From the IMG/VR virus record IMGVR_UViG_3300022682_000016, positions 26,313 to 90,312 of that record: 64,000 bases of DNA. One strand, 5' to 3'. Under the pieces are notes generated by a model. That model had not been told where the DNA came from. It saw only the letters and a program-made list of their open reading frames with translations, and ran no database searches. The position numbers were made by a program, and so were the translations under genes. This document shows positions 7,519-64,000 of the stretch, in pieces (position 1 is the stretch's first letter; each line of letters opens with the position of its first letter). The stretch comes from a virus.

Positions 7519-9691
7519 AAATTTAGTCATAAATAACTTATACAGTTTTGGGGAAGGGGTTCTCTTCACATTTGTTTATAATGAAGAAAACTCAAAGACT
7601 CTTATTGTTGGTCAAAACAATGACGAATCAGGTGCAGACAGTAATGGTGCTGGAAAATCAAACACACTTAACGTTATTTTCTGGACCATAATTGGGGAAG
7701 TTTTCCAAAAAGAAAATGCTGATGACATTATACGTCGAGGAAAAAAGTCAGGGTCTGCAAAGTTAACCCTATTGGATGATAATGGTAAGGAATTGGTCAT
7801 TGAGCGTGGACGTGGGAAAGGTACTAAAAAATTTCTGAAGTTGTCCTATAATGGAGATAACAGAACATGTGATACAGACACCGCAACTCAGGCAGAACTT
7901 TTTAAACTTCTAAACATATCCCCAACATTAAAGGTATCTGAAGTCATCAACGACTTTGTAAATACTTGTTATTTCAGTTCCGACACTGTGAAAGGATTCA
8001 TGGCTAAGGAAGTAAAATCTAAGCAAAGATTTGAAATTATTGAGCGGTACCTTGGTCTGAAAAGATACTCCTATGCTTCTGAAGATGCTAAGAAAAAAAA
8101 GTCAGAAATACTTGCTAAGATAAATCCAATATTGGAAGATATTGCCCATAAACAAGAGTTCCTGACTAACAATCCTACAGCTGACTTGGAACAGCAAATT
8201 ATTGAAAAAGAGTCAGAAAAATCTAAACTAACCTCTGAGCTTGATTCGGTAACTAAGATGTTGGACAGTGTTCGGCAAAGGACGGAACTTGAAACATTAC
8301 TAGCTTCTAAGAACACCTTATTAGATACTACACGTTCCGGATTTGTCAGCCAGCTTCAAAATATGAAGAATGAAGTGGCCACATACGATGCTAATATTCA
8401 ACAAGCTAATGAAGCTGTCGAAACGTACAATAAAGAAAAAGAGGTTCTGGATAAAGCCGTAATAGCTATTACAGATGTAAAAATCAATCAGCAAGCAATA
8501 AATACTGAAATTTCTAATATAAACTCTGAAGTTATGAAGCTCAATTCCACTATTGGTGGATTAAATAACAATATACATAACATTAAAGGACAGCTTGCCA
8601 ATCATTATACCTGTCCAAAATGTAAATCAGCATTAATGTTAACTAACGATAAATTAGAAAATGTGGATGTTGATGCGTTGGCAAAGCAGTTAGTGGATTT
8701 AGAGAATAAAAGACTACAAATTTCAAACACTATTAAAGAACATCAGGAAAAGGTCCAGAACCTTACCCAACAGTCTAATGATCTTAATAACCAAATACAA
8801 AAAGTTTCTCACCAAGAAGCCGCATTTAAAAATTTACCCACACCTGACCAGTTAAAAACTGTTATTGATAATAACAATTTTAATAAAGACGAGGCTGTTA
8901 CGAAGTATAACAATACAGTAACCCATGCAGAAACTACAGTTGGTGCCTTAAAAAAGGAAATTGAGGATCTCACTGTAAAAGTAGATGCTTTAGGTAAGTC
9001 TGAAATGGGTGTCCCGGCAGTGACTGCCCAATCAGAAAAATTAAAGGGGGATATAAATACTATTCTTACAGATACTGGAAGGCTTACTGAACGTATTACC
9101 CACATTAATAAAACCTCTGAGGAGATTGAAAAGCTACAAAAGAACGTCTCCAAAAATAAAGCACTTGCAGACATGTATGGTTTCTGGGAAATTGGCTTTA
9201 GACAGATAAAGATGAATATCATAGATGAGTTCTTACCAGATTTTGAAGCTAAGGTGAATGACTATTTAGAACGTCTCAAAGTTAATATGAGTGTAGAGTT
9301 CGGAACACAGAAACGAAAAGCAAATGTCAGCAAAAAGGACATTGCTGAGGGCCGAGAGTTTAAAGAGGAATTTAATGTCACTGTTTATCGTGGAGAAGAA
9401 CTGCTGCCCTTCGGACTGTTATCTAAGGGACAACGTAGTCGAGTAGGATCTTGTGTAGGTATGGCACTTAGAGAAATGACAAAGGAACGAGGAAACAATC
9501 TATTCGACTTTTTCTTCTTAGATGAAATTGCAGATGCTTTAGATGAGAGTGGTCTTAGAGAATTGGTATCACTACTTGATGAAGTTCCTGGACAGAAATT
9601 GGTTATAAGTCATAATGAAGGGCTTAAAAACCTTATAGAAGATACTCTGACTGTCGAAATGACTAACGGTATCTCTACTGTTCAAAACTAA
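7508..9691 (+). CDS. sbcC: SbcC/Rad50-like SMC ATPase
   Basis: Walker A SNGAGKS, coiled coils with central zinc hook CPKC, signature LSKGQ, Walker B FFFLDE, ISH. Confidence 0.92.
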   Translation: MRLKNLVINNLYSFGEGVLFTFVYNEENSKTLIVGQNNDESGADSNGAGKSNTLNVIFWTIIGEVFQKENADDIIRRGKKSGSAKLTLLDDNGKELVIERGRGKGTKKFLKLSYNGDNRTCDTDTATQAELFKLLNISPTLKVSEVINDFVNTCYFSSDTVKGFMAKEVKSKQRFEIIERYLGLKRYSYASEDAKKKKSEILAKINPILEDIAHKQEFLTNNPTADLEQQIIEKESEKSKLTSELDSVTKMLDSVRQRTELETLLASKNTLLDTTRSGFVSQLQNMKNEVATYDANIQQANEAVETYNKEKEVLDKAVIAITDVKINQQAINTEISNINSEVMKLNSTIGGLNNNIHNIKGQLANHYTCPKCKSALMLTNDKLENVDVDALAKQLVDLENKRLQISNTIKEHQEKVQNLTQQSNDLNNQIQKVSHQEAAFKNLPTPDQLKTVIDNNNFNKDEAVTKYNNTVTHAETTVGALKKEIEDLTVKVDALGKSEMGVPAVTAQSEKLKGDINTILTDTGRLTERITHINKTSEEIEKLQKNVSKNKALADMYGFWEIGFRQIKMNIIDEFLPDFEAKVNDYLERLKVNMSVEFGTQKRKANVSKKDIAEGREFKEEFNVTVYRGEELLPFGLLSKGQRSRVGSCVGMALREMTKERGNNLFDFFFLDEIADALDESGLRELVSLLDEVPGQKLVISHNEGLKNLIEDTLTVEMTNGISTVQN

Positions 9692-9711
9692 GCTATTTTT
9701 GGGATTAAAAA

Positions 9712-10065
9712 ATGACCAATACCCGTTTAAGTACTCAGCAAATAACCGATATACTTATGTTGGTCAGTTCCCAAAATGGTGATGAAGTGATATCTTATAT
9801 TAATAAAATACTAAGCAAGGCCAGTACCGGTTTAGACACCTGCGCCAGACCATTAGCTATTCGTAGTAAAGATGATCAAAAACATGAGTGTTTTGCTGTA
9901 GGCTATTTAGAAAAGATACACGAATTTATCTGTGAAACCGATAAACGCTGTTCAAAAGAAGACACTATTAAAAAAACTATTGAATATATAAATAAGCTGA
10001 TCATTGAGATAGGCGCTTTCTTTACGGTACTTAAAGGCGGGTTTAGTGAACATTCACGAAGATAA
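9712..10065 (+). CDS. Hypothetical protein
   Basis: 117-aa ORF tightly packed in the operon. Confidence 0.55.
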   Translation: MTNTRLSTQQITDILMLVSSQNGDEVISYINKILSKASTGLDTCARPLAIRSKDDQKHECFAVGYLEKIHEFICETDKRCSKEDTIKKTIEYINKLIIEIGAFFTVLKGGFSEHSRR

Positions 10066-47444: not shown

Positions 47445-48419
47445 TTAAAATCTTGCATATATTAGAGCCTGTACATTATTTAATCTTTCTTCATCTGTTA
47501 CCGGAGTTATTTCAAGCTCATAGGCTCCTCTGTCTGGAGCTGCGCCTTGTGGACGGCTGGTGCCTATTATATCTTCATCTGTTGCTGTACCCGAAGCTGC
47601 ATTAGCTAGTATTGCTTCTGATAATTCCGTCGGAGTTGCTGCTCTTGCTGACATAACTGACAGTGTATCTGATAATGCTTGAATAACTTGGTCTGTAAGA
47701 TTTGGATCTGTATCAACGACAGAATTTGTTGCGGGATTTATAAATGACAGTGTTACGTCTCCTGCACCGTAATTATAAAATGTGCAACTGTCTAAATAAT
47801 ATTCTAATGAAGCATCAATAGCAATATCAGTATCTCTAAAAACACAAAATAACGTATTATTAATTCGTATAAGCTGTTGGGGTGATTCTCCAAGAATGAT
47901 GGAAGCTTCGTTCTTAACAATAAATATAGAACAATTATTAAAACCGCCTTCAGTCTGTGACGATGGTCCACCAATAAATATGTATCTGCTGGTCAAGTAA
48001 ATCAAACAATTATTATACACTGGCCAAATAGCACCAGATGTTCCATTATTTATCTCACATAAAGTGTAATCATTTTCAAGTACAAGGTTGTCAAAGGAAA
48101 TTACTGCAGTTGTGTTCGGTATGGCCGAGTTTACTGATCGTTCATAAAATCTTCCAACTAATGTAGCGGGGGTGCTGCGTTCACTTGGGTCTGTCTGTAT
48201 GGTAATATTAAAATCATTAAACACTAAATCATCACCAGTGAGATTATAGTACTGATTGATTACGCCAAAAGATTCACCGCCTTGTACATTAAGCGTAACG
48301 TGATCCGTTAGCCCACCCATTTGGCTAACAAGAACGCTTATGGCAACAAATGCATCATCTAAAGTAGTATAATCTCCTGGTATTGCTGCCCCAGCCTTTC
48401 TGAGTGTTATAGTTGTCAT
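47445..48419 (-). CDS. Beta-helix (pectin-lyase-like) virion protein
   Basis: GDYTTL..A start, NNC repeats, C-terminal DIIGTSRPQGAAPDRGAYE. Confidence 0.65.
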   Translation of the reverse strand: MTTITLRKAGAAIPGDYTTLDDAFVAISVLVSQMGGLTDHVTLNVQGGESFGVINQYYNLTGDDLVFNDFNITIQTDPSERSTPATLVGRFYERSVNSAIPNTTAVISFDNLVLENDYTLCEINNGTSGAIWPVYNNCLIYLTSRYIFIGGPSSQTEGGFNNCSIFIVKNEASIILGESPQQLIRINNTLFCVFRDTDIAIDASLEYYLDSCTFYNYGAGDVTLSFINPATNSVVDTDPNLTDQVIQALSDTLSVMSARAATPTELSEAILANAASGTATDEDIIGTSRPQGAAPDRGAYELEITPVTDEERLNNVQALIYARF

Positions 48420-48429
48420 AGCAATCTTT

Positions 48430-50034
48430 CTATGTTAAAACCGATTCTACAGAGGTTAAATTTGCACCTGAGTAACTATACGTTTTTGTTTCTGTTATAC
48501 TTAATTGGACATACACTGTCTCCTCAGTAGTAACTTGCTTACTACCATTATACGTAAATGTCTTCGTTGACACCAATGTTCCTTTTCCGCTGTCTGTGTA
48601 TTTCGTTGCTGTGGCTATCGTACCATCACCGTTATATGTATATTCTATGTATTCAGAAATGGCTATGCCTTTTTTCTGTTGGGCTAAATAATCTAGGGCT
48701 TTTTGTAGGGTGTCAGGAGTTATCAACCAATGCGCAAGAGTAGTCGGCGTAAATTTTGAATTACCTAGATACTGATTATATACAAAAGACCCAGATCCTT
48801 GCATAAAATTTGCAGGTAGTATGCCTATAAAATTGTCATAAGATGAATCTATTGTATCGCCGGTGCCTGTATAATAAGGGTAAAATGTGACCTGAGTTCC
48901 TGTAGCATTTTCTCTAGCAACAAATGTATTAACAGTTGTCGGAACAAACGCATCATTGGCTTGGGAATCAACATATAAAAACCTAACCTCACCGCTTGGA
49001 GTTGCCCCATCATTTGGTCCCATCGACACATTATTACCCTTAACCACAGTTTGTCCAATACCGTGGTCATTGGTGTTTGTATAAATAATATTAAATATGG
49101 AATTAAATGTGTTCCCAAAATAGCCAATGAACGTATTATTTATAATTGTATAATAAGGGATGTCATCATTAGATATATTACATAAACAAGCAACACCAAA
49201 AACATCCGTAGATAAATTTATAGAACTTCCAGCTATGTTAATGAGACAATTAGTAGCGTCCCAATAACTGTGGGTAGCAGAATCCATATTAATTAAATAC
49301 CTATCAATACCGCTATCACCGCTAAAAATAGGGAACCAATAAAAATAACAGTTATTTGTTATAAGCCTAAAAGCCCCACCAGTCCCTTTTATTAATTGTA
49401 GGTGATGTGTAGAAACACCAAAATTAACATCTATAAATCGTAAATGACAGTTTTGTAAACTAAGCGTTGTCCCACCACCTCCCTGAAATATAGCAAAGTC
49501 TGCTGGAGTAAATACACCTCCAGGGCCATCTGGTATAGACACAAAAAGCACATCTCTAAATTCGAGAGATATGTAAGACAATGTGAAAACTGGACTGGTA
49601 GTATCTTGGGGAATAGATATTCTGACAGATGCCACCACGCTATCACCGCTAGTATATTTACCTGCTTGAACGTCTTGTGGGGAATAGGCTTGTATAACAA
49701 TAGAAGTGAGGGCAGAAGCACTTGACGTTAGTGTGATTTGTCTATCAATTGTATAATCACCCGCATCCATTAATATTAGTACTGTATGGTAAGTCAAGTC
49801 TTTAGATAGCTGATTGGCCGCTTCTAAAGCATCTGGTAAGTTATCATAATCAGCCCACGTTAGATCAGACCCAACCCTTATTACATTATTTGCTTTTTCC
49901 GTACTTTCTTCAATAATAAGACCAGTTCCTGTAAATCTTGGAACTTTACCAGCAGTAGCGTTCCCACTACCGGGAACTGAGGAAAAACCTATTCGTTTAG
50001 GAAGCTCAGTATTTACAAAATCTTCAAAAGCCAT
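48430..50034 (-). CDS. Tailspike/fibre-like beta-helix protein
   Basis: DY..L.DAL.AA...ILMDAGDY, NC/NN beta-helix repeats, C-terminal YTYNGDG/FTYNG repeats. Confidence 0.65.
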   Translation of the reverse strand: MAFEDFVNTELPKRIGFSSVPGSGNATAGKVPRFTGTGLIIEESTEKANNVIRVGSDLTWADYDNLPDALEAANQLSKDLTYHTVLILMDAGDYTIDRQITLTSSASALTSIVIQAYSPQDVQAGKYTSGDSVVASVRISIPQDTTSPVFTLSYISLEFRDVLFVSIPDGPGGVFTPADFAIFQGGGGTTLSLQNCHLRFIDVNFGVSTHHLQLIKGTGGAFRLITNNCYFYWFPIFSGDSGIDRYLINMDSATHSYWDATNCLINIAGSSINLSTDVFGVACLCNISNDDIPYYTIINNTFIGYFGNTFNSIFNIIYTNTNDHGIGQTVVKGNNVSMGPNDGATPSGEVRFLYVDSQANDAFVPTTVNTFVARENATGTQVTFYPYYTGTGDTIDSSYDNFIGILPANFMQGSGSFVYNQYLGNSKFTPTTLAHWLITPDTLQKALDYLAQQKKGIAISEYIEYTYNGDGTIATATKYTDSGKGTLVSTKTFTYNGSKQVTTEETVYVQLSITETKTYSYSGANLTSVESVLT

Positions 50035-52151
50035 TATACAGTCTCCTCAAGTATAACCGCTGCTTCTCCGGAAGTGTTACTGACAGCATTGGCTTGGTCT
50101 TTATTGAACCATAAGTTCCCTGTTGGATTAGCTACTCCGGTAGGTTCTGTTATAGTAAACTTATCAACCTCATTGGTTGTGTCTGTACTATAAGTAAATA
50201 TGGTTCCACCATTGGGACCACCTCCACCTTTAGATAGGTTTTCGCAAACAAGTTTGGAAGTATCATAAACCTGCGTACCTATAGAAGCTTCTCTATTTGG
50301 CCAAGCAGCTACAGTAAGGGTTCTTTGCGTAAATCCACCAAGGACATAATCCGCACCACTATTAATAACTGTTACAACTTTACCTGCCAAGTTGGTAGAG
50401 GACAGATTAGTAAATGTAAAAGTACCCTTAGTATCAGAGTCTGCCACAAGCATGGATCTTGTCCAATTACTTGGTCCCCCTGTAAACCCAGCTCCTTGCC
50501 AAGTACCTTCACCAGCTCCTAAATCATCTAAGGTAGGAGCTTCTATTAATCTTTGAGAACTTGCAATTGTTATAGAGTAAGATTCTCCAGCATTAGAGCT
50601 TCGTAGTCGTGTATATGGAGTACTAATGTTAATCACTTGATCAGAATGTGCTATGTAAACCACTGCCTGTCTTGTAGTAGAAGCTGCGTTGGTAGTTTTA
50701 GTAGCTACCACTCTAAAGTTATTAATAGATATATTATAGTTACCTGCAATACGGGTAGCTGACTTGGCAGGCTCATAAGTACTGGAATTAGCAATAGACA
50801 ATTGTGAATTTGGTGAATCGTAAGCAACTGTACCGGTACCTGTTGGGAATGAGATTGTATGATTAACAGTTACAGATTCAGAATCTTTAATAGCTTCTTG
50901 AGAAGCTGGATAATCAATATTTCCCTGAGAAATTGAGGATATTACTGGGTAGTCATTGTTAAGTTCAACAGTACCTGACGCGTCTCCTGTATGGAAATCT
51001 GTAGCCACTACATAATCACCCCAGAAATTGTTAGATTCTGCTCGACAACGGATTCTAACAGTCTGTTCAGCAATTGTTCCTGAACCCCTATCAGAAATAG
51101 TTATAGCAACTGTATGACTAGTTCCTGGAGTAAGGGATGTTGTTTGAGCCTGCGCAGCTTGATAATTAACAACCTCTACCCTATCACAAGCAACATCTGT
51201 AGTGAAGGTTATATTGAATGTATCACCCTCTTTAAGTTCTGTTTGAGAACCTGGGTAACCATCTGTAAACTGTAGATCAGTGACTTGCGCACCAGCAGCC
51301 ACAGTTACTGGAACAGTATAAGGTTCTGGATTATCCTCATGCTCTGCGGAAAGTTCAGAAGCCCCATTAAGATCAATAGCTATACTTCCTACCCAGTGTC
51401 CTTGAGAATTAAGACTTAAATCAGAAGGATCAATATCATTACCGTTTATGGAAAGTCTAGGTACATAGTGAGAATACCCAGTAAAGGCTAATACTTCCAC
51501 TGTTATAAGATCAGTATCTGTAGAAAATCCAGTTAAGGTATACCCATCCTCATAAGTCTTATCTCCAACATTACCGACACCAGTTGCGGACACATCCGTT
51601 ATAAACACGGCCCCATTAGTATCTGCCGCATCTCTCGACCTGGAAGAAGAACTACATGAAGAACTAAAACTGGAACTGTGGCTAGAACTACAACTTGAAG
51701 AACTACTAAAGTTCTCATCTGAGGAACTGGATGAGGAACTGAAGCTTGATGAACTAAAACTTGAAGAACTGAAGCTGGATGAACAGCTACTAAAACTGGA
51801 AGAACTGAAGCTGGCACTGTGAGAACTTGAGCTATATATTAGTGGAGTTCCGGTATAATCCCTTCCAACACCGATACCTGTTCTTGTAGTATATGCTTGT
51901 GGAGCCACACCACCCAAAATATTGTAAGGTCTTACAGTTGGCCATGACCCACCTTTACCAATATTAACAGCAGCAGCTGTTCCCCGAGCAATTAGATAAT
52001 CAGGAATCTCATTAGGAACACCCAAAGCTGAAGAACAGCTGGGAGAGCTACTAAATGAACTAGATGATGAGCTAGACATTGAAGAACTACAGCTACTAAA
52101 AGAACTGGATGAGAAACTACTGGAAGAAGATGAAGATGACGAACTAGCCAT
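50034..52151 (-). CDS. Virion structural protein with two N-terminal poly-Ser/Cys tracts
   Basis: Ser tracts at aa ~3-41 and ~106-171, followed by Ig-like beta-rich domains. Confidence 0.7.
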   Translation of the reverse strand: MASSSSSSSSSSFSSSSFSSCSSSMSSSSSSSFSSSPSCSSALGVPNEIPDYLIARGTAAAVNIGKGGSWPTVRPYNILGGVAPQAYTTRTGIGVGRDYTGTPLIYSSSSHSASFSSSSFSSCSSSFSSSSFSSSSFSSSSSSSDENFSSSSSCSSSHSSSFSSSCSSSSRSRDAADTNGAVFITDVSATGVGNVGDKTYEDGYTLTGFSTDTDLITVEVLAFTGYSHYVPRLSINGNDIDPSDLSLNSQGHWVGSIAIDLNGASELSAEHEDNPEPYTVPVTVAAGAQVTDLQFTDGYPGSQTELKEGDTFNITFTTDVACDRVEVVNYQAAQAQTTSLTPGTSHTVAITISDRGSGTIAEQTVRIRCRAESNNFWGDYVVATDFHTGDASGTVELNNDYPVISSISQGNIDYPASQEAIKDSESVTVNHTISFPTGTGTVAYDSPNSQLSIANSSTYEPAKSATRIAGNYNISINNFRVVATKTTNAASTTRQAVVYIAHSDQVINISTPYTRLRSSNAGESYSITIASSQRLIEAPTLDDLGAGEGTWQGAGFTGGPSNWTRSMLVADSDTKGTFTFTNLSSTNLAGKVVTVINSGADYVLGGFTQRTLTVAAWPNREASIGTQVYDTSKLVCENLSKGGGGPNGGTIFTYSTDTTNEVDKFTITEPTGVANPTGNLWFNKDQANAVSNTSGEAAVILEETV

Positions 52152-53005: not shown

Positions 53006-53700
53006 TAGTTAGATTTCCTTTTCAGGAGTTTCGACACTGCTAGAGAAAAACACTCTTTAACAGAAAGTTCTTTTAGTATCTCATGTTTAAAATCATGTTT
53101 AGCTGTAGCTCTAACCTCATTCTCTAATCTTACTCTATATTTCTCTCTTAAGAAAACATCCCAATCAAATAATGTACCAGGATCTACTTTCATAACTGAT
53201 TTTTTCTTAATACCAAGATCTACGGCTATTTGACCAGAGATCCAATCATGGCCTACCCATTGCTCAATATGCCCTAAATTTTGATTATTAACGTAATCTT
53301 CAATAAATACTGCTAAATTAGCAAGAGATTGATATTGTGGAGTTGTGTATTTATCTCCAGCTTTACAAACCAATTCAACACCTATTGAATCATGATTAAT
53401 ATTTTCCATATACTCTGGAATAGCTATTACTGATTTTCCAGCATGCCAAGCAGTGTCCTCTAAACGAACAAGCTGCCATATATTTCCTTCACGATCAATT
53501 ATATAATGACATGAAAATTGGTATTTTGGACCTTCCTCATCAAATATCTTTAAGACGCCTTCCATATTGTAAGGATCTTGCTCATACCCCTCCATATTTT
53601 TAGCGCTTACAAAGTGTATAACACCAAATTTTATTGGTCTTTCATGTCCTTTAGTATAACTTGGGACGAAATGTTCCTGAACAGCTATTGCGGTATTCAT
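53005..53700 (-). CDS. N-acetylmuramoyl-L-alanine amidase (Amidase_2/AmpD-like endolysin)
   Basis: VIH, SCHYII, AWHAG, N..SIGVEL, VGH..I, K.DPG. Confidence 0.92.
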   Translation of the reverse strand: MNTAIAVQEHFVPSYTKGHERPIKFGVIHFVSAKNMEGYEQDPYNMEGVLKIFDEEGPKYQFSCHYIIDREGNIWQLVRLEDTAWHAGKSVIAIPEYMENINHDSIGVELVCKAGDKYTTPQYQSLANLAVFIEDYVNNQNLGHIEQWVGHDWISGQIAVDLGIKKKSVMKVDPGTLFDWDVFLREKYRVRLENEVRATAKHDFKHEILKELSVKECFSLAVSKLLKRKSN

Positions 53701-56216
53701 AACACATCTTTCAAAGAGTTTATAACCTTAGTTACATAATCATCATAACCTTTACCGTCTAACTCATCACTAACTGGGACTGATCCATAATCATCGGCCT
53801 CGTCTGATTTTTCTGATAAGGTGTCTCCTTCTGGAGATTCGTTTATTTCACCCGGACCTATGTTCATCATATCTTGAAGACGTTTAACCATTAGCGGTGA
53901 TGTATTGTAAAAACCTTTATAAGAGTCTGGGTCGTAGTAATCGTAATTGTCCCCAAGGTTACCAAGGAATTTATCTCGAACATCGTTAAATATTCCGGAT
54001 GGAGTGTTGTACGCATACCCATCTTGATCAAATGCTTTCTTTATAGTATTTAAAGATGCTCGTATATCAGCATCCTCTGGATCAAACTTACCAGTGTTTC
54101 CGATAGCAGATTTTATTTGATTAGGAGAAAATACTGCATAACCCCAAGTAGATTGTCCTGGTGCTTCTTTAACAGTGTAACCGTCATAACCATTTTCCTG
54201 CAACCAAGATACAAACTGTTTTGATTCTCTAGCATCATAATTACCGATAGCTATTGCATCTGAAAAATTATAAGCATCATCCTCTGAAAAATCATAATTA
54301 TTAATCAAGTAATTCCTGAACGAAACCAACTCATTAGAGTCTTCATCTACCTTATCAAATAATTTTTCTACTTTTAAATAAACTGGATATATATTAGCTC
54401 CTTTAGCATATGCATAACCACCAGCAAACTCAGGATTTGGGGTAAAGAATAGCTGTTGCTGAGTTGGTTCTGAGTCTACTCCTGATTTAAACGAGGGCTT
54501 AAATTCAGAAAATGATTCATGAGTCCCATGGTAAACAACTAAAGGATTACCGTCCTCATCAACTACTTTACTATCCCCAAACCATGCTTTGAACTCTGGA
54601 GAGTCTGTAATTGAGGCTGTGAGTGTGTTTTTAATAGGTATGACTGTACCGTCACCCAATGTAATGTCTAATAACTTAATAGGACTTCCAGAAAGCACTC
54701 TTAGTTCATATTCATCTCTACCTTGAAATTCTGCTGCTGCTGATATAGTTCCATAAATATCAACGTATTCTTTGCCAACTATACCATGCAAAATAATAGT
54801 TTCTCCAGGGTCACTGAGAGAATGGTAAGGTCTAGCACCTTCTTTATTATAAGACCAGTATAAACCTAATCCATCACTCTCTTTATTTTTTGAAACTCCA
54901 CGTTTTATATCGTCTATAAAACTCTCAACATCTCGTACTTTAATAGCCCTCCAAATTTCAAATTCATTAGCACTGTAAAAATCCTCTGGAAGCCTAATTC
55001 CGTTAAAAAACTCTTCTAAAGAGTTTCTCAATATAATATTAGCCTCATCATCTAAATTATCTTTGTCGATGTTTGTAAAATCAGTATTATAAAACACATC
55101 ATCCAAAATTTGTCCAAAAGTATCAGATTCTGTAGCAGCTAAAAGTCCCTCCACAACAACATTATTAGCATCCTTTCCAAGCATATCAGAAATAATAAGC
55201 TTTACATTATCAGTATCATATAAATAATCAGAAATATAGTTCTGAATACTGGATATATCCGAATTGTCAGAATAAACAACAGAAGATCTATTTTTAGAAG
55301 TTTTCAAGACAGATGCTACTGTTTCTAAGTAGTCTTCAAGATCGCCCAAGTCATCAAACTCTTTATAAGGTTTTTCAAGCCTGTCAAGAAGTTCCTTTTC
55401 GTGTTCAGTACCTTCCCCACCTTTATAAAATACGACTTCATCGGACAAAAGCATATTAGCTACTTCATCATAGATATTGACCTCAGCTTCCCAATCTTCA
55501 TCAACAGGATCTATTAAAATCATAGTATCCTTAAATTCTTCTACTATGTCATCACGCCAGTCAGTGGTTTCACCACCAAGAAAAACAATTGGATCACCGT
55601 AAACAGTCCCGTCTTCGGAAAGGTTATTAGACTCCTTATCAGAATCAGCCACATCTTCTATAACCTCAACAGATTCCTTTTCAGGTTCATAACCTTCTAA
55701 GTAAAGATCTTCTGTAGTTCCATCAGGGTTACTGAGAATAAGTTTTGTTATTTCCCACTCAAAAGGTTCTACCTCTTCATCTTTAAGGCGTACTCCGGGC
55801 TGCATATATGCAATTGTAATGTGAGGCTTATACTCTGGATGAGAATCCTTATTTGGAAGTTCCTCTTTAAGAGTGTTATGCAGTTTGGTTAGCTGTTCAG
55901 ATTCAACAGGTACAATAGCAACTGTATTATCATTATCAAAATAATCAACTTTACCAGAACTTTTTATTTTAATAGGTTCTGTAAAATATTCTTTAATAGT
56001 ATCTTTACACGCCTTATCAGGATTAATTCCATATAAAACTGTTATATGAGTGTCAGTTTCTACCCCATTCATAGTTTCTTCTTGAGGATAAAGGTCCCCT
56101 TCATCTATAGTAGGCGCAATATCTTTTAAAAGTATGCGTCTAAGTTCATCCGGAACAGGAGCATAGATACAGCCATGCTCGTAATTAGCTGTTACTGTAT
56201 TCCTAAACATATTCAT
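53697..56216 (-). CDS. Polyvalent protein: 2H phosphoesterase + NDT-like + R-S-ExE ART-like + ART-PolyVal-like domains
   Basis: HITVLYG/PHITIAY; VFLGG...WR...IDPV..DW; IWR..YWS..EYE; FKAWFGDSKVVD..GNPLVVYHGT..FFT...YA..YPVYL..GYDG...VFSPNQIKS. Confidence 0.8.
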   Translation of the reverse strand: MNMFRNTVTANYEHGCIYAPVPDELRRILLKDIAPTIDEGDLYPQEETMNGVETDTHITVLYGINPDKACKDTIKEYFTEPIKIKSSGKVDYFDNDNTVAIVPVESEQLTKLHNTLKEELPNKDSHPEYKPHITIAYMQPGVRLKDEEVEPFEWEITKLILSNPDGTTEDLYLEGYEPEKESVEVIEDVADSDKESNNLSEDGTVYGDPIVFLGGETTDWRDDIVEEFKDTMILIDPVDEDWEAEVNIYDEVANMLLSDEVVFYKGGEGTEHEKELLDRLEKPYKEFDDLGDLEDYLETVASVLKTSKNRSSVVYSDNSDISSIQNYISDYLYDTDNVKLIISDMLGKDANNVVVEGLLAATESDTFGQILDDVFYNTDFTNIDKDNLDDEANIILRNSLEEFFNGIRLPEDFYSANEFEIWRAIKVRDVESFIDDIKRGVSKNKESDGLGLYWSYNKEGARPYHSLSDPGETIILHGIVGKEYVDIYGTISAAAEFQGRDEYELRVLSGSPIKLLDITLGDGTVIPIKNTLTASITDSPEFKAWFGDSKVVDEDGNPLVVYHGTHESFSEFKPSFKSGVDSEPTQQQLFFTPNPEFAGGYAYAKGANIYPVYLKVEKLFDKVDEDSNELVSFRNYLINNYDFSEDDAYNFSDAIAIGNYDARESKQFVSWLQENGYDGYTVKEAPGQSTWGYAVFSPNQIKSAIGNTGKFDPEDADIRASLNTIKKAFDQDGYAYNTPSGIFNDVRDKFLGNLGDNYDYYDPDSYKGFYNTSPLMVKRLQDMMNIGPGEINESPEGDTLSEKSDEADDYGSVPVSDELDGKGYDDYVTKVINSLKDVL

Positions 56217-57218: not shown

Positions 57219-57370
57219 CCTGGTTTATCCAACTTATAAAAAGTTAGAATGGCCCCCTTCAAAACCTTTAAGTGGATTTCGTGCTTCCCAGAAACCAGTT
57301 TCGTATTTCAAGAAATCCTGAAATACCAGAGCCGGTCTCTCCACACGCTTTAACGACAAACCCTGCCGCA
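57219..57370 (-). ncRNA. Putative omega/reRNA scaffold of TnpB
   Basis: Overlaps the tnpB 3' end; nested stems GAGACCGG/CTGGTTTC and GTATTTCA/TGAAATAC. The location is as established for TnpB elements. Confidence 0.55.
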
Positions 57371-58417
57371 TAATATTTTGTGCTGCATTTAAATCTCTGT
57401 CAATTTCAATTCCACATTCGCATTTGAAAACCCTGTCACTGAGATTCATATCATTAACAGAACCACAATCAAAACACAACTTTGTACTTGGGAAAAACCT
57501 ATTTATAACATGAACTCTTTTACATTTGTATTCAAGCTGTCTGCGTGCCTCTCGGAACGAAACGTCAGCAATAGCTTTTGCTAATTTGTGATTTCGCAAC
57601 ATACCAGAAGTATTTAAATCTTCAAGACAAACATCTATATAATTATTGGCAATATATCTTGAAAATTTATGAATTGCATCACTCCTGTAATTACTAATCC
57701 TAATATGTAGTCGTTGAAGCGTGGTTTTTACTTTACGGAAACTATTAGAACCCCTTACCTTTCTTGACAAAGATTTGTTTAGCAACCTTAAACGATGTGA
57801 AAATTTCTCGATTATTCTAGGATTTTCAAAAACAATACCATCAGACAATGTAGCGAATTTTGATACGCCAAAGTCAATACCAATAGGTTTAACAGCTTGG
57901 TTTTTAATATCACCTTTGTTATCAACTTCAACGCTAATCGAAATAAACCACCAATTAGCCTTTCGAGATACTACAGCAGAAACAATCTTGCCATCATATC
58001 GCAACGATTCTGTCATTTTAACCCAGCCTAATTTTGGGACTTTCACTTTATTATTATCAATGGATAACACTGTACCAGAAATATAAAACGAATCATGTAC
58101 CCCTTTCTTTTTAAATCTAGGATATCCTTTTTTAGTTTTAAAAAACCTTTTAAACGCACTATCAAGATTTCTAAACGCTTGGTCAGGTGCCCATTTTGTA
58201 ACATCATAAACAAACGGAAATTCAGCACGTTTTATGGAATTAAATTGTTTTTTACTCCAAAAGCAGTGGGTTTTCCTCCGCTTTCATATAAAAACTTCCA
58301 TTTTGCAAGCCCCCAATTATAAGCAAGCCTTGCACAGCCACATGCTTTTGCAAAATATGTAGACTGCACATTATTTGGAGACAGACGTATTTTATGACTT
58401 CTTTGTATTGTATTCAT
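57234..58417 (-). CDS. tnpB: TnpB RNA-guided endonuclease, split by a single -1 frameshift (about 394 aa if joined)
   Basis: HKIRLSPNN...ACGCARLAYNWGL, then after the shift KQFNSIK..FPF..V.K.APDQAF...GYPRFKKK; RuvC GIDFG, LEDL, DRDLNAA; Zn finger CFDC/CEC. Confidence 0.9.
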
Positions 58418-58468: not shown

Positions 58469-58672
58469 TTACAGTTTCAGCCCCCTCTTAATTGTGGAGA
58501 CTAGCTTAGCGATACTTGCTCTACCAAGGTTTTCAGTATTCCAACGATAATGATCTTCATACTCATCCATTACCGTTGTTCTTGGTGGAACCCGATCTTC
58601 TCGTCGTTCATTTTCTCGGAGCTGGGTATTATTAAACTCCAAATTATCATAAAGAACCGAGTCTTTACGCAT
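58469..58672 (-). CDS. Hypothetical protein
   Basis: 67 aa; TAATG coupling to the upstream gene. Confidence 0.6.
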   Translation of the reverse strand: MRKDSVLYDNLEFNNTQLRENERREDRVPPRTTVMDEYEDHYRWNTENLGRASIAKLVSTIKRGLKL

Positions 58673-60402
58673 TAAACAGTGGTCTCCATAACTTGAGTTA
58701 TTTCAGTACCGGATGGAACTACTACAGAGTTTCCAGCATCGTCTTTTGCTACAATTGCGGGTTCTGAAGAACCAGCCATCTGACTAACATTGTCCACTGT
58801 AAGTGTCATAGGTTGTCCAGTGGTCTGGTCATTTACCTGAATCTGTGTTCCTGGAGTCATTTCGGCAAACAACTTTTTAGATTGTTTTGTCCGTCTTTTT
58901 CCAGTAAGGGCAGATATTAAAGAACTGATAACATTACGAGGACTCTCACCTTTAGAGATTCGATTAGCATAAACACCTAAATCTTCTTCAGAAAACTCTG
59001 GAGTGTCATCATCTTCATCCTTCGTAGCATAGCTACCACAAATTGCAAGTTCTACCTTATCATTCATATTAACCATGATAGATTCTAATTTGCAATTACC
59101 AGTTTTTTCTTTATCATAGTTTATACAGTTAGTAACTGAACACTCTAATACTGTCCGATCCTTATCCTTATCTGAAGATGAATCATCTGCAAGGTCATCC
59201 AAATCTTCTGACAACTCTGCTATCTTTTTAGAAGCTTCTGAAATCCCATTAAAATTAAGAACTGCGTTTCCCTGAAAAGCATCAGTCACGATTTTTTCCA
59301 TAGCAGGAACAGCTTTATTAATCACCTTCTGTATACCTTTACTATCAGCACCTTCAATTGTAAAGGAAATGGTGCTACTACCAGCAGTCTTCTTAGACGC
59401 TTCTGTGGAGTTGTTTTTTAATAACTGATCTTTAAGAGATTCCAATGATGAAAAGAACTCTTCATTAACATTTAACCATTTAGTCTGGCCATTTTCTGAT
59501 CTAATCTGAACAGTTGCTGGATAGTTACCTATTGGAAGAACAGATGATAGTTCATTTTCATAATACCCCGCTGTCTTCTTAGAAGCCTGTTTAGATACAT
59601 CTTCTTTAGATTTATTTGTACGATATAACAGTAAATTTTGGTAATTTTCAAATTCGCCGTTATTATCTTTAGAAAAGTTTTCTGCTTCTTTCATTTGATC
59701 CCAGTTAAATCTTTTAATAGTTCCGTCAGGTAACGTAACTTTAAATGGGTTTCCTTTTACAGTCTCTACAAAATCTTCATATAACGGAGTGCTTATGTTA
59801 GGGTTATTTCTGTGTTCCTCCACAAAAGCATCATACATATCCTGTACCATATCATCAAAAGATAGTCCTCTAGTATCCGTCACTTCAGCAATCTTTTTAG
59901 ATGAACGTTTTTCAACAGGATCTTTTTCACCAGCATCCAAAACTTTCTTAATTTTAGGATCTACCTTTTCCTTCATAGGTTCAGCTACCGATTCTTTCTC
60001 AGTTTTTCGGTCAGAGGTATTTGGATGTTTGTTTTCGTTCTTATTCCGTTCACGAATATCTTTTTGTTCTTCTGTAGTAGGTTCAACTTTATCAACACCA
60101 TAAATCTTATCTTGACCCTCAGAAGCAATTGCAGTCTCTTTTCCAGAAAGCCCGAATAAAGTACCCAATTGATCAGATACCTGCTTAGGAGCCTCTCCAT
60201 TAACTACTGAAATACAGGTCTTAATAGCTGCGATATCATTTACAGAGGCACCTTTTAGAAATGTATAAGATTCATTATCACTTAAAGCAATGGACAATAC
60301 TTTAAGCTGATCAGTAGTCGGATTTTTAGTTCCAGCCTTAACAGCTTTTTTAATAAGATTAACAACTGAGGTTTTTTTAAGGACTTCCATAATATTCTCC
60401 AA
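58672..60402 (-). CDS. Head-region modular protein with five SKKxA repeats and a DUF1540-like Cys domain
   Basis: SSKKIA, ASKKTA, ASKKTA, ASKKIA, QSKKLFA; C.V.NC..Y....C....I.V......A.C..Y. Confidence 0.7.
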   Translation of the reverse strand: MENIMEVLKKTSVVNLIKKAVKAGTKNPTTDQLKVLSIALSDNESYTFLKGASVNDIAAIKTCISVVNGEAPKQVSDQLGTLFGLSGKETAIASEGQDKIYGVDKVEPTTEEQKDIRERNKNENKHPNTSDRKTEKESVAEPMKEKVDPKIKKVLDAGEKDPVEKRSSKKIAEVTDTRGLSFDDMVQDMYDAFVEEHRNNPNISTPLYEDFVETVKGNPFKVTLPDGTIKRFNWDQMKEAENFSKDNNGEFENYQNLLLYRTNKSKEDVSKQASKKTAGYYENELSSVLPIGNYPATVQIRSENGQTKWLNVNEEFFSSLESLKDQLLKNNSTEASKKTAGSSTISFTIEGADSKGIQKVINKAVPAMEKIVTDAFQGNAVLNFNGISEASKKIAELSEDLDDLADDSSSDKDKDRTVLECSVTNCINYDKEKTGNCKLESIMVNMNDKVELAICGSYATKDEDDDTPEFSEEDLGVYANRISKGESPRNVISSLISALTGKRRTKQSKKLFAEMTPGTQIQVNDQTTGQPMTLTVDNVSQMAGSSEPAIVAKDDAGNSVVVPSGTEITQVMETTV

Positions 60403-61210: not shown

Positions 61211-61990
61211 TTATACTCTGGAAGGAGCCTGTCCGTGCTTCTTCAATTTACGAGAAGCAAGCGTCTTTTTAAGGAGCTTTTCTTCTCGTTTAGCTTCACG
61301 AGCCTCTAATTCTGCAAAACGATCATCAAAATCATTTTGTGCCGTATCTTCAAACATGGTGCCTTTTGAATACTTAGTCTTTTTAGGAACTTTAAAGGCT
61401 AATCCTTCTTCTTCCGAAGATAATGGTACAAGAATGGGGCGACCGCCAACACCATTCAAATCAGTAGCTGCATGACGAAGTCCTTTAGACCGATTAATTT
61501 CTTGTGGAGTATAAAAATCTGTTAAGACAACCACTTCTCCAGGCTGAAATGTAAGCCCCATATCGTCATCATTTGTTTTCATGTCCGGAACAACCAAAAA
61601 TTTATCTGATTGATTCTGCACAATAACATACCGAGGTTCTACTTGGACCATCATGTGATCCATAACTGTAGCGTTAGGATTACCAGTAGCAGGTAAAGGG
61701 GTACGTTTCTCAAGACTTGAAGCTAAGGCAGCATCTTCAGCAGCCTTTTGAGCAACTTTGTCTGGGTCAATTGTGTAAGATTTTTGTTCCGGGGCAATAG
61801 ACTCTTCTTTAATAACTGTAGTTTCTACAGAAGAGGGAGTTTTAGTAACTTCTAAAGTTTGAGTCTCTTTGATAGAGGATGCAACAGGCTCAGGCTTCTG
61901 AACCGATTCATTAAGGGTAGTTTTGGAAGTTTCGGAGATCCCTTCTTGGGCTACTCCATCTTCCTTAATGGTTTGTTGGTTGCACTGCAT
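61211..61990 (-). CDS. Hypothetical protein downstream of the major capsid gene
   Basis: 259 aa, disordered N-terminal half; SD AAGGAGGT. Confidence 0.7.
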   Translation of the reverse strand: MQCNQQTIKEDGVAQEGISETSKTTLNESVQKPEPVASSIKETQTLEVTKTPSSVETTVIKEESIAPEQKSYTIDPDKVAQKAAEDAALASSLEKRTPLPATGNPNATVMDHMMVQVEPRYVIVQNQSDKFLVVPDMKTNDDDMGLTFQPGEVVVLTDFYTPQEINRSKGLRHAATDLNGVGGRPILVPLSSEEEGLAFKVPKKTKYSKGTMFEDTAQNDFDDRFAELEAREAKREEKLLKKTLASRKLKKHGQAPSRV

Positions 61991-62084: not shown

Positions 62085-62978
62085 TTAACCAGCTGTGTTA
62101 AAAGTTCCCTTTGCAACAGCTTTGCCATTGTGTACAGTCATGGCTAGAAGCTCATAACCAACAAAACCAAGTTGCAAATTGTCCGGATCATCAGCGGGGA
62201 TAACATCCACGTCACGACGAATAGGAGTCCAAGCTGTGAATTCCGGTTCAGCGATGATGTAGAAAGTACCGCTAGTGACTTGGTCATTGATATAAATATC
62301 AGCATCCCAAATGCTTCCAAGATAACCGGATTTACGGATTTCTTCACGGGCAACATTATCGATGTCCTGATACTGCCAACGACGAATACCTTGGATGCCG
62401 TAAGGAGACATCAAGATACTCTTAACACGCAGACGATGACGTTCAACCTGAGTAAATGCACGGGCAAGAGCGTCTTTGGTCAGGTAGGTAGAAATGACCG
62501 TAGTTGTGTTAACCTGCTGAGAAGCAGTTTCTAACAGAGAGAAACCATAAAGGTCTTCACGAAGGGCCATACCCTGTTCCAAACGTTCTTTAACACGTTT
62601 CATTACCTGGTATAAACGTTTATAAAGTTCAGCGTAAGGGACTTTAGGACGAACAACGATTTCAAATTCTTCGAGTTCGGTACGTTCAACCTCAACTTCG
62701 ATAATACGAGTAGTACCATTGCGGCCAATTTTGACAGCGGTAAACTCATCAATATCGTTGTCGTAGATGATAGGCATTCCATCAGGCCAGCCTTCAACAA
62801 CGCTGAAACGACGATAAATACCAATGTAGTCCAGATACTTCCGAACAGGAGAAGCCAAGTTAGCAGCGATTTTATGAAGACCTGTGGGGGACTTCATCGC
62901 AGCCTGAAGGTCGGCTTCTTTCCGCATCATCGAAGCTTTAGCAGCTTCGCGTTTTGTAGATGCTTGTTTAGTAATCAT
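62085..62978 (-). CDS. Major capsid protein (short HK97-fold type)
   Basis: LA.PVR..LDY.GI.RR...VE..PDG....YD.D, FEIV..P.V...EL..R, ED..GF.LL, GYLG.IW.A.I, GFVGYE; strong SD GGAGGT. Confidence 0.85.
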   Translation of the reverse strand: MITKQASTKREAAKASMMRKEADLQAAMKSPTGLHKIAANLASPVRKYLDYIGIYRRFSVVEGWPDGMPIIYDNDIDEFTAVKIGRNGTTRIIEVEVERTELEEFEIVVRPKVPYAELYKRLYQVMKRVKERLEQGMALREDLYGFSLLETASQQVNTTTVISTYLTKDALARAFTQVERHRLRVKSILMSPYGIQGIRRWQYQDIDNVAREEIRKSGYLGSIWDADIYINDQVTSGTFYIIAEPEFTAWTPIRRDVDVIPADDPDNLQLGFVGYELLAMTVHNGKAVAKGTFNTAG

Positions 62979-63052: not shown

Positions 63053-63845
63053 TCAAACTGTTTGTTCAAATTCTTTTATATATTTCGCAATTCTTAAATG
63101 AGTCTTTATATCCCCATCATTCTTAATCCTATTAGCTCTATAACTAATTACAGAACAGTTCTCTTTTGTGTACCCTAAAGTTGGATCTAAACGATCCAAA
63201 GAAGGTGAATTATTAGTCATGATACCCACACCTCTTTTAATGGGTATAGAAAGTATTGGGCATATCGCAGGTACTTTAATATCATTTTTACGTAAAGTAC
63301 AGGGAACATTTAATGTTCTCGATCTACGTTTAGCTCCCCAATACAATTTATTTATTAACTGTTTATCATTAGATTGATACTTCAACGACAATTTTTTGTC
63401 ATGCGTAGACATGTATCGGACAACAGCTAGGTGTTCATCAGCAGTTGCATCATTTTTTATCATATTAGCTTTTTTTGATATGACAGCAATGTTATTGGGA
63501 ACATATCCTAATTTTGGGTTAATTCTATCTAGTGAAGGACCAAACATTCCATTACCAACTACTAAAGGTACTCCTAATATTGGACAAATATCTGGTATTT
63601 TTACATCATTTTTTGTTATAGTAAACAAAAGATTACCTTTACGAGCACGTTTACGAGCATCTTTTAACATCAACGTAACAGGATTAGATCTTCTACGTTG
63701 TTTAGCATATTCTCTAGCTAACTTTCTTTTAGTATCATTTTTTTTATCTGATCGCATACATTCTTTGCAAGTATTACGTCTACCGTCTACACACTCATAC
63801 GATATGTAGAATTCAGACAATACCTTTGTTTCTCTGCATCTAATA
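63053..63845 (-). CDS. Tandem-domain HNH-like (His-Me) endonuclease, N-terminus apparently interrupted by a TnpB element
   Basis: Two copies of A..RA...CPIL..P....PSLDR..P.LGY...N..VIS..AN.IKND. The frame extends upstream of the called TTG (63820) as IRCRETKVLSEFY...DG....CKEC. Confidence 0.8.
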
Positions 63846-63975
63846 GTTGTGGAAAGTATAGAAATTCATTCCATGACTTTCCTCGACGCTTCGTCGGGAT
63901 TAGCTCCGGGAAGCAAGCTTCCCGGAGTCTTACAATCTCTCCACGTCTGTAATTCCGCATCAACTCCTACGGAGA
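63846..63975 (-). ncRNA. Putative omega/reRNA scaffold and right end of the second TnpB element
   Basis: Perfect stem CTCCGGGAAG-CTTG-CTTCCCGGAG (63904-63927), CGACG-AAG-CGTCG hairpin, end ...TTTCCACAAC. Confidence 0.6.
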
Positions 63976-64000
63976 TCTTTAAAATATTCTTAGCAGCGTT
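63866..64000 (-). CDS. tnpB: C-terminus of a second TnpB (continues beyond the window; not in the ORF track)
   Basis: NAAKNILKISVGVDAELQTWRDCKTPGSLLPGANPDEASRKVME*; NAA.NIL is the RuvC-III motif. Confidence 0.8.
   Translation of the reverse strand, partial: NAAKNILKISVGVDAELQTWRDCKTPGSLLPGANPDEASRKVME

Follow-up and report, generated by a model that had tools for sequence, protein, structure and literature searches.

Introduction

What kind of protein does a virus encode when five near-identical copies of a short basic motif separate segments that are otherwise unrelated to each other? The question is raised by a gene in a 64,000-nucleotide stretch of viral DNA (the window), which comprises positions 26,313 to 90,312 of IMG/VR virus record IMGVR_UViG_3300022682_000016, i.e. 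the last 64 kb of this linear record of 90,312 bp. The gene occupies the minus-strand open reading frame (ORF) 58672..60402. In an earlier note on this DNA it had been proposed that its product, here referred to as the cassette protein, is a polyprotein of small packaged proteins that are released by the prohead protease and possibly injected. The architecture of the protein, the conservation and distribution of the motif, the turnover of the segments between the motifs (cassettes) and the identity of the prohead protease in related phages are all shown by the analysis. By analogy with characterised phages we lean towards the view that the cassette protein is loaded into the capsid as a cassette polyprotein and would be cut at the motif by the prohead protease.

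Results and discussion

Motifs and predicted structure of the cassette protein

The ORF was confirmed and encodes 576 aa when counted from the TTG codon at 60402. A candidate ATG start at 60390 is preceded, at a distance of 6 nt, by a GGAG Shine-Dalgarno sequence within which the TTG itself is located. As close homologues moreover start at the equivalent methionine, all of them beginning MEV or MEILKK, the true start is probably this ATG. The resulting coding sequence (58672..60390, minus strand) specifies 572 aa, in agreement with the database record of the protein, and the TTG would add four codons. Residue numbers throughout refer to the 576-aa version, and all features of the gene described in the following are on the minus strand.

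All five motifs were found where the earlier note had placed them. Motif 1 (SSKKIAE, S168-KKIA-E173; 59884..59901) forms the junction between the N-terminal region N2 and cassette B, within a segment (residues 158-178) for which the predicted local distance difference test (pLDDT) score is below 50; a string of the K-[KT]-x-A type is present at this junction in every member of the protein family described below. Motifs 2 and 3 both read ASKKTAG. The former (S274-KKTA-G279; 59566..59583) is located at the end of the pLDDT<50 segment 258-278, and the latter (S336-KKTA-G341; 59380..59397) inside segment 330-351, likewise of pLDDT<50, with K337, K338 and A340 being invariant in alignment A1. Motif 4 (ASKKIAE, S391-KKIA-E396; 59215..59232) is part of a predicted helix (384-406, pLDDT ~59-73). 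Motif 5 (QSKKLFAE, S508-KKLFA-E514; 58861..58881) is a variant of the class KK[LMF]x[AS][ED] in a pLDDT<50 linker, and its junction reads KKMAE, KKAAE or KKFSE in orthologues. Compared to the five copies of SKK.{1,2}A[EG] in the protein itself, 200,000 composition-preserving shuffles gave two copies at most (none in 197,902 shuffles, one in 2,087 and two in 11). Among all ORFs of at least 50 aa on the 90-kb contig, [SA]KK.{1,2}A is found only three times beyond the cassette protein. The motif codons (TCT AAR AAG AYW GCN) differ at synonymous sites among the copies, which are only 63-76% alike over ~30 nt of DNA. Conservation of the motif in the window gene thus appears to be mainly at the protein level, as had been suggested.

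An AlphaFold2 model of the cassette protein, built with the family alignment (mean pLDDT 70.6), contains six confident beads: N1 (11-67), B (181-250), C (280-328), D (354-376), E (421-500) and F (515-570). Motifs 1, 2, 3 and 5 are found in linkers of pLDDT<50 between beads of pLDDT 75-95. The expectation that the motifs lie between folded domains is therefore in line with the model for four of the five motifs, but not for motif 4 with its helical surroundings.

The family-defining N-terminal region consists of two parts. N1, its first half (aa 5-67; 60202..60390), is a conserved module of four helices (11-22, 30-39, 43-50 and 54-67), predicted with a pLDDT of 93-97 and kept in the 26 family members. 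N2 (aa 68-167; 59902..60201) is charged and conserved in sequence, with the pattern GxxFG...KHPxTSDRKT...EPLKEK and invariant residues that include T129, S130 and D131, yet it is predicted to be disordered (pLDDT 38-58). As far as the model goes, this combination is characteristic of regions that acquire their fold on a partner, and N2 is a candidate propeptide or prohead-targeting region. In P0020, P0021, P0026 and the family member from locus L006, N2 has a copy of the motif on either side.

Cassette B (aa 174-273; 59584..59883) is an alpha/beta bead (pLDDT ~80 for 181-250) that is unique to this phage's copy; it is absent from P0002, P0003 and P0005, and an unrelated cassette takes its place in P0004. 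Cassette C (aa 280-335, YYENELSSVLP...; 59398..59565; pLDDT 74-92) is a widespread small domain, common to P0002, P0003, P0004 and P0011, and is also found in stand-alone proteins of 56-160 aa (P0028-P0036) that begin 0-3 residues from the end point of the motif. Cassette D (aa 342-390; 59233..59379), a small helical bead (helix 354-376, pLDDT 60-73), is absent from P0003, P0004 and P0005.

Cassette E (aa 397-507; 58882..59214; pLDDT ~91) combines an acidic linker, a Cys4 bead and a conserved helical hairpin, YANRISKGESPRNV. The earlier note had described a DUF1540-like Cys4 domain. Four cysteines in this bead (C421, C426, C437 and C455) are indeed invariant, whereas the match to DUF1540 (PF07561; residues 420-455, E 0.0032) did not reach the Pfam threshold (18.0 vs 22.1 bits). 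Judging from its absence in P0008, P0012, P0014-P0017 and P0022, the Cys4 part also behaves as a cassette. Cassette F (aa 515-576; 58675..58860; pLDDT 80-95) is the second family-defining module, a conserved C-terminal beta-barrel of Tudor/SH3-like shape with strands within 520-570, kept in nearly all family members. Foldseek comparison with the PDB gave weak Tudor matches for this cassette (template-modelling score by target 0.7-0.78, E>0.01), and no match at E<=0.001 for the whole cassette-protein model.

Family members and cassette turnover

An exhaustive HMMER search of 1.84 billion representative proteins resulted in 36 matches, 26 of which are family members. These comprise 216-929 aa and share the N-terminal ~165-170 aa; nearly all of them also share the C-terminal ~60-aa domain. 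The conserved N-terminal ~168 aa, ending in the motif, are present in all 26 members, and we infer for this region a role in capsid targeting. Cassettes B and D were the best-scoring stretch of no protein in this search.

In the four closest orthologues (322-476 aa), both ends of the protein are retained around zero to three middle cassettes, partly shared with the cassette protein and partly unrelated. These middle cassettes are bounded by [SA][SA]KKTA[GAD], and the general form of the boundaries is [SAG][SA]KK[TIV]A[GAED]. The gain or loss of whole inter-motif segments, for which the earlier note had proposed to look, is thus seen, and exactly at the motif; it extends to the 26 members of the family. 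Up to seven motif junctions are found in the larger members (P0011, P0020, P0021, P0026 and the L006 member), and there are also minimal members without any cassettes, in which the motif is kept only at two fixed junctions. Across the family, 49 relaxed motif matches were observed for 10.7 expected. A profile of 38 KK[TIVAML]A instances shows A/S/G, S/A, K, K, T/I/V and A in succession, followed by a variable position (E/A/G/S/Q/D). Cassettes are moreover common to family members and other, non-family motif-bearing proteins in the head block of a relative. The junction DPVEKRAAKKTA of locus L001 takes the form of a 36-nt DNA repeat with three copies of 81-97% identity, and this repeat is direct evidence that cassettes have been moved or duplicated by recombination at the junction.

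A mosaic of cassette number and identity among orthologues, encoded beside virion genes, is a trait of polyvalent-type proteins. Pfam, PHROGs and NCBIfam returned neither a polyvalent effector or enzymatic domain nor any family assignment for the cassette protein, and a Pfam search of ten cassette-rich relatives gave only DUF5661, in P0021. The cassette protein had no match in 50,697 phage genomes (tblastn), a scan of viral contigs with alignment A1 found nothing, and look-ups of cassette C and the N-terminal region in the ESM Atlas gave no usable matches.

Distribution of the motif among head proteins

Viral-contig scans with alignment A3 and the capsid protein provided loci L004, L005 and L006. 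The first two belong to G001, a complete 132-kb record with 159 ORFs, and the third is a contig of 28 kb. Both relatives are from IMG/VR, encode a capsid protein 85-88% identical to that in the window, have the same synteny and extend further upstream of the capsid gene. The head block of G001 (34.5-67 kb) runs from the scaffold and protease genes through the portal gene to several large proteins of unnamed function; for the large head-block proteins, Pfam and PHROGs gave only portal and unnamed families. Eight copies of the canonical motif [SAGT][SAT]KK[TIV]A are encoded in this block vs 0.08 expected (P=5e-14), and none in the other 29,400 aa, be it in the tail/downstream-head block or in the remaining 65 kb. 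For the looser form [SATG]KK[TIVLMA][AS], the corresponding numbers are 16 matches in the head block vs 1.19 expected, none in the tail/downstream-head block and one in the remaining 65 kb. The head proteins encoded upstream of the capsid gene in L005 and L006 account for 11 motif matches vs 1.17 expected, with the motif present in the putative scaffold of the relatives as well as in other carrier proteins. Such recurrence in unrelated head proteins points to a common reader acting in trans, not to shared descent.

In Bacillus phage G, which has a genome of 497 kb, the protease gp19 and the proteins gp20 and gp21 carry the strings VKTAAK, LKKTAL and IKKTAK (L003 5549-8437), and the head region of 24.8 kb contains six motif matches for 0.92 expected. 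Together, these strings and counts suggest that the motif is old in the phage-G-like lineage. Virion proteomics of phage G employed fully tryptic searches, and no cleavage sites were reported (PMC12484599). The C-terminus of gp21 of this cultured phage, AGKKFSEL, resembles the last junction of the cassette family.

The prohead protease of related phages

Upstream of the capsid gene, the relatives encode a small decoration-like protein, a charged putative scaffold of ~750 aa and a protein of 441-462 aa. The last of these matches phrog_18299, a head maturation protease family (E 4e-8), and is homologous (BLASTP 1e-13) to phage G gp19, itself annotated as head maturation protease (PMC12484599). 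Among 48,161 PDB representatives compared with VIA-align, the best match of the protease model (residues 9-297) was T4 gp21 (5jbl_A; Z 9.1, root-mean-square deviation 2.9 A, 139/165 residues). Foldseek missed T4 gp21 in the PDB, and phmmer against the PDB sequences found nothing. H94 and S208 are invariant in 29 orthologues of the protease, which are 46-56% identical to the first sequence. The phrog_18299 match, the homology to gp19, the structural match and the invariant His94/Ser208 identify the protein as the prohead protease, with the fold of T4 gp21.

The motif brackets the catalytic core of this protease. Before the core, all 29 orthologues have a site of the form [AS]xKK[LMF][AS][ED], i.e. 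the same variant as motif 5 of the cassette protein. After the core, the invariant GGKAGGEGADKDAKLLEVF is followed by a basic linker, which varies in length, invariably ends in KKxA-Y and is predicted to be disordered (residues 294-340). In T4 gp21 and phiKZ gp175, autoprocessing sites bracket the catalytic domain in this manner, and by analogy the two sites resemble autoprocessing sites of other prohead proteases. Self-cleavage is documented for the prohead protease of SPN3US (PMC10052503).

Both the protease (residues 370-423; L006:4276-5664) and the cassette protein (58675-58860) have a small Tudor/KOW/SH3-like barrel at the C-terminus, after a motif site. The shared barrel type could represent a common prohead-anchoring module. 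Homology of the two barrels was considered and found no sequence evidence (hhalign probability 0.2). Likewise, a likeness of N2 to repeats of the putative scaffold, based on an EKVDP string, was rejected (BLASTP E 0.4-0.6).

Proposed mechanism

The architecture of the cassette protein, the turnover of its cassettes and the head-restricted, protease-associated distribution of the motif are best explained by one factor that reads the motif in trans, and the prohead protease is the most plausible candidate. In the mechanism that we favour, the N-terminal module (the four-helix domain and the disordered stretch, ~168 aa) and the C-terminal barrel frame variable, mostly orphan cassettes, with all junctions carrying S-K-K-[T/I]-A or K-K-[L/M/F]-x-A-E. 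By analogy with characterised systems, the whole chain would be co-assembled into the prohead via its conserved ends. The gp21-fold prohead protease would then read the motif and cut there, and copies of the motif elsewhere would let it trim its own chain, the putative scaffold and further carrier proteins. Once freed, the small proteins would remain associated with the DNA and might accompany it into the host. New cargo would be added or exchanged by recombination at the junction.

The scissile bond is most likely located after Ala, as conservation stops at this residue and the next one is variable; related assemblin proteases cut A|S. Such a cut would yield six pieces of 168, 106, 62, 55, 118 and 63 aa. 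Alternatively, the protease may cut one residue later, since I-A-E or L-A-E in three of the five motifs of the cassette protein resembles the L/I-x-E site of T4. Head retention and injection of the pieces would follow the example of the T4 internal proteins and of the ejection proteins of SPN3US and phiKZ; the orphan, fast-changing cassettes and a neighbouring polyvalent protein (see below) provide hints in this direction. A more far-reaching version is possible, albeit doubtful at present: a plug-and-play system of the phage-G-like lineage in which any small SKKTA-flanked domain, placed between the N-terminal loading module and the C-terminal barrel, would be packed, freed by a gp21-fold protease of hitherto undescribed basic, Ala-ending specificity and delivered as an early-acting (e.g. 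anti-defence) protein, the junction serving as the recombination patch through which phages exchange cargo.

Several observations weigh against processing of the cassette protein by the prohead protease. The contig ends ~1 kb upstream of the capsid gene, and the portal, protease and scaffold genes of this phage are not on it, so that the link to a protease comes from relatives; the contig has no terminal overlap that would indicate circularity, and no protease is encoded in its first 26 kb. Secondly, the strict motif occurs on this contig only in the cassette protein and in one unrelated protein outside the window, and in no other head protein. Enrichment in head over replication genes, a check proposed in the earlier note, is seen in the 132-kb relative. 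Thirdly, the strings in minimal family members (e.g. P0006, P0007, P0010 and P0022) are all degenerate (K-T-A or K-K-A-G), and repeated junctions may be inherited with the cassettes by copy-and-paste, which would inflate the counts within a gene. Motif 4, the sole motif of the cassette protein predicted inside a helix, is less clearly accessible, and the N-terminal motif site of the protease is equally predicted inside a helix, not a linker. Finally, characterised gp21-type proteases cut after Glu, not Ala.

Alternative explanations

Of the alternatives, the one that survives best also invokes cleavage of the motif by the prohead protease, with the cassette protein being an assembly or scaffold-type factor. 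Its pieces would be degraded and leave the capsid before the DNA is packaged or in the course of packaging, and nothing would be delivered to the host. We regard this as unlikely. It gains some credit from N2, which is charged and disordered like scaffolding and core proteins, from the motif shared by the putative scaffold and the protease, and from the textbook cases of T4 and HK97, in which cleaved scaffold fragments exit the head; the minimal members free of cassettes likewise imply a core function without need of cargo. Still, folded and diverse cassettes that turn over quickly and are for the most part orphans look more like conflict-type cargo than like filler of a scaffold, and one of the cassettes occurs as a stand-alone gene in other contexts. 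Relatives moreover have a separate scaffold-like gene for ~750 aa between the protease and capsid genes, and the cassette gene is located near a polyvalent ART/2H (ADP-ribosyltransferase/2H phosphoesterase) protein of an injected class.

Ranked next, and in our view improbable, is an intact multi-domain chain that is never cleaved, in which the motif would be a flexible inter-domain joint and a patch for recombination. Precedent exists, as polyvalent proteins are often delivered uncleaved (PMC5512222), and the junction repeat of L001 (36 nt, 81-97% identity) is direct evidence for copying at the DNA level. Conversely, the copies in the window gene differ at synonymous sites and are no more than 63-76% alike. 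The same peptide is furthermore present in unrelated proteins, namely in the protease linkers of 29 orthologues, in the putative scaffold and in carriers near the portal; these motif-bearing linkers are otherwise variable in length and sequence, and the motif is confined to the head block.

That SKKxA is instead a binding site for the inner capsid surface, a scaffold, the protease (by way of docking) or DNA, with the copies raising avidity for head incorporation, is very improbable: the motif is basic, repeated and restricted to head-block proteins, and the cargo of encapsulins and T4 is known from textbooks to use short targeting peptides, but a pure binding role leaves unexplained why the motif is placed exactly at every domain boundary, immediately before the domain starts, why members free of cassettes keep it only at the two fixed junctions, and why it brackets the catalytic core of the protease as autoprocessing sites do.

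Comparison with known systems

For the preferred reading of a capsid-loaded, cleaved polyprotein, the closest precedents are the jumbo phages SPN3US and phiKZ, in which the phages' own prohead protease acts on head proteins at multiple copies of a motif (PMC10052503); many of the products stay in the head and are ejected (PMC10052503; PMC5694885). Here as there, one short motif is repeated in jumbo-phage head proteins encoded near head genes; the substrates in SPN3US and phiKZ start with long propeptides, to which the conserved N-terminal region of the cassette protein may correspond. In phiKZ and SPN3US, gp175 or gp245 cuts inner-body and ejection proteins at S/A/G-x-E, and also cuts itself. 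The motif of the cassette protein differs in being basic (S-K-K-T/I-A), not x-x-Glu. It separates exchangeable folded cassettes, beyond merely shredding a propeptide, and the lineage is phage-G-like, with a 297-aa capsid protein of the HK97 type.

The T4 proteins IPI, IPII, IPIII and Alt are small and fast-evolving, tagged N-terminally for the prohead, freed by gp21 after L/I-x-E and injected with the DNA. The relatives' protease shares the gp21 fold (Z 9.1). In contrast to T4, where each internal protein has its own gene and a tag of ~10 aa, several cargo domains are combined here in one chain, with an N-terminal module of ~168 aa, a C-terminal barrel and another motif.

Polyvalent proteins (Iyer, Burroughs, Anand, de Souza, Aravind 2017; PMC5512222) are similar in that they are multi-domain and mosaic, encoded among virion genes and predicted to be delivered together with the DNA; some are proteolytically processed (P1 DdrB, DarA). 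The cassette protein differs by the lack of a Pfam-recognised polyvalent-associated enzymatic domain, its cassettes being beads of 50-120 aa, and by its proposed processing, which would be performed by the prohead protease at a repeated linker motif and not by an in-built MPTase.

Genomic setting and neighbouring genes

On the minus strand, the gene order is HNH endonuclease, capsid protein, 259-aa protein, 239-aa protein, cassette protein, 67-aa ORF, broken IS605 TnpB, 283-aa protein and 839-aa polyvalent protein. The cassette gene is thus three genes downstream of the capsid gene, within the head-morphogenesis module, and a tail sheath gene is found downstream. The series capsid, 259-aa, 239-aa, cassette, 67-aa and 283-aa gene is kept in L001, L002, L004 and L006. 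The major capsid protein (62085..62978, minus strand; 297 aa, HK97-type) matches phrog_2522 (E 1.4e-49) and is 37% identical to gp27 of Bacillus phage G. Judging from these matches, the cassette gene belongs to the head module and the phage, which is uncultured and possibly infects a host of the Bacteroidota, to the phage-G-like clade.

Similar motifs had been noted near the N-termini of the capsid protein (TKQA|S and AKA|S) and of the 239-aa neighbour (MRIIA|D). The strings exist in both proteins but are not instances of the motif. AAKAS lies inside the conserved REA..RKEA helix of the N-arm and is replaced by LQK or LQR in orthologues of 50-63% identity, and a capsid N-terminal cleavage motif was therefore rejected; the string in the 239-aa protein is devoid of lysines and varies among relatives.

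Directly after the capsid gene, the 259-aa head-module protein (61211..61990, minus strand) has a low-complexity N-terminus and a conserved string, EKLLKKTLA[SG]R, at a distance of 14 residues from the C-terminus; the window copy reads LLKKTLAS, L001 has KKTLAS and L004 has KKTLAG. It may be a further protease substrate with a KKxxA variant of the motif.

The 839-aa polyvalent protein, described as three genes downstream of the cassette gene (53697..56216, minus strand; PF18760 E 1.6e-25, PF13563 E 5e-10, PF23474 E 7.5e-9), has an N-terminal 2H phosphoesterase domain (Acb1/2'-5' RNA ligase-like) and a C-terminal ART-PolyVal ADP-ribosyltransferase domain. Two or more distinct effector or enzymatic domains are characteristic of the polyvalent class, which is predicted to be virion-delivered (PMC5512222). 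The homologue in L004 comprises 1109 aa and contains three copies of ART-PolyVal, a nucleoside 2-deoxyribosyltransferase-like domain and a 2H domain in another order.

The 67-aa ORF (58469..58672, minus strand) has its ATG overlapping the TAA of the cassette gene by one base (TAATG), an arrangement suggestive of translational coupling with the cassette gene. The ORF could be assigned to no family; it is conserved in L002, with 68 aa. Between the 67-aa and 283-aa genes, a broken TnpB of the IS200/IS605 type (57234-58417, minus strand) survives in two fragments, one N-terminal (61 aa, 58232..58417) and one of OrfB_IS605/Cas12f-TNB (278 aa, 57234..58070). In L002 and L004 the two genes are adjacent, without a TnpB insertion, and the contig also encodes an intact 392-aa TnpB paralogue at another place (C1:9021-10199).

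Directly upstream of the capsid gene, the window contains a two-domain HNH/endonuclease VII-like gene (63053-63820, minus strand). At the same spot, between the decoration-like and capsid genes, L006 has a TnpB-like gene for 446 aa (8525-9865), and the spot is empty in L004; the site has the appearance of a mobile-element hot spot. The final 180 bases of the window (63821-64000, minus strand) contain the 3' end of an ORF (...NPDEASRKVME*) that is unlike the decoration-like gene found there in relatives. In G001, the portal protein (47490-50642; L010:7490-10642, minus strand) has 1050 aa, with a TKKAAS string near its C-terminus. Its residues ~390-760 match PHROG families of ribonucleotide reductase and thymidylate synthase, pointing to an intein or an inserted domain.

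Conclusions

Multi-site processing of head proteins by prohead proteases is established for T4, phiKZ and SPN3US, as are mosaic polyvalent proteins delivered by virions (PMC5512222). What is new is that the motif is basic (K-K-x-A), that it goes together with a gp21-fold protease in the phage-G-like lineage, and that cassettes are inserted into a constant frame, made up of a loading module at the N-terminus and a barrel at the C-terminus. Should the motif not be cut, the family would still stand out as a remarkably clear example of domains being shuffled at a constant linker. If it is cut, a new specificity of the gp21/assemblin-fold prohead proteases would be defined, for basic K-K-x-A rather than x-x-Glu, and a simple sequence rule would be at hand for predicting which head proteins are processed in phage-G-like jumbo and huge phages, of which, to our knowledge, one has been cultured. 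Loading of variable small proteins as a cassette polyprotein would then have arisen in a lineage besides the T4-like and phiKZ-like phages. In the same case, the motif together with the conserved ends would offer a natural model for bringing foreign proteins into capsids, and the orphan domains of 50-120 aa would form a pool of candidate injected early effectors.

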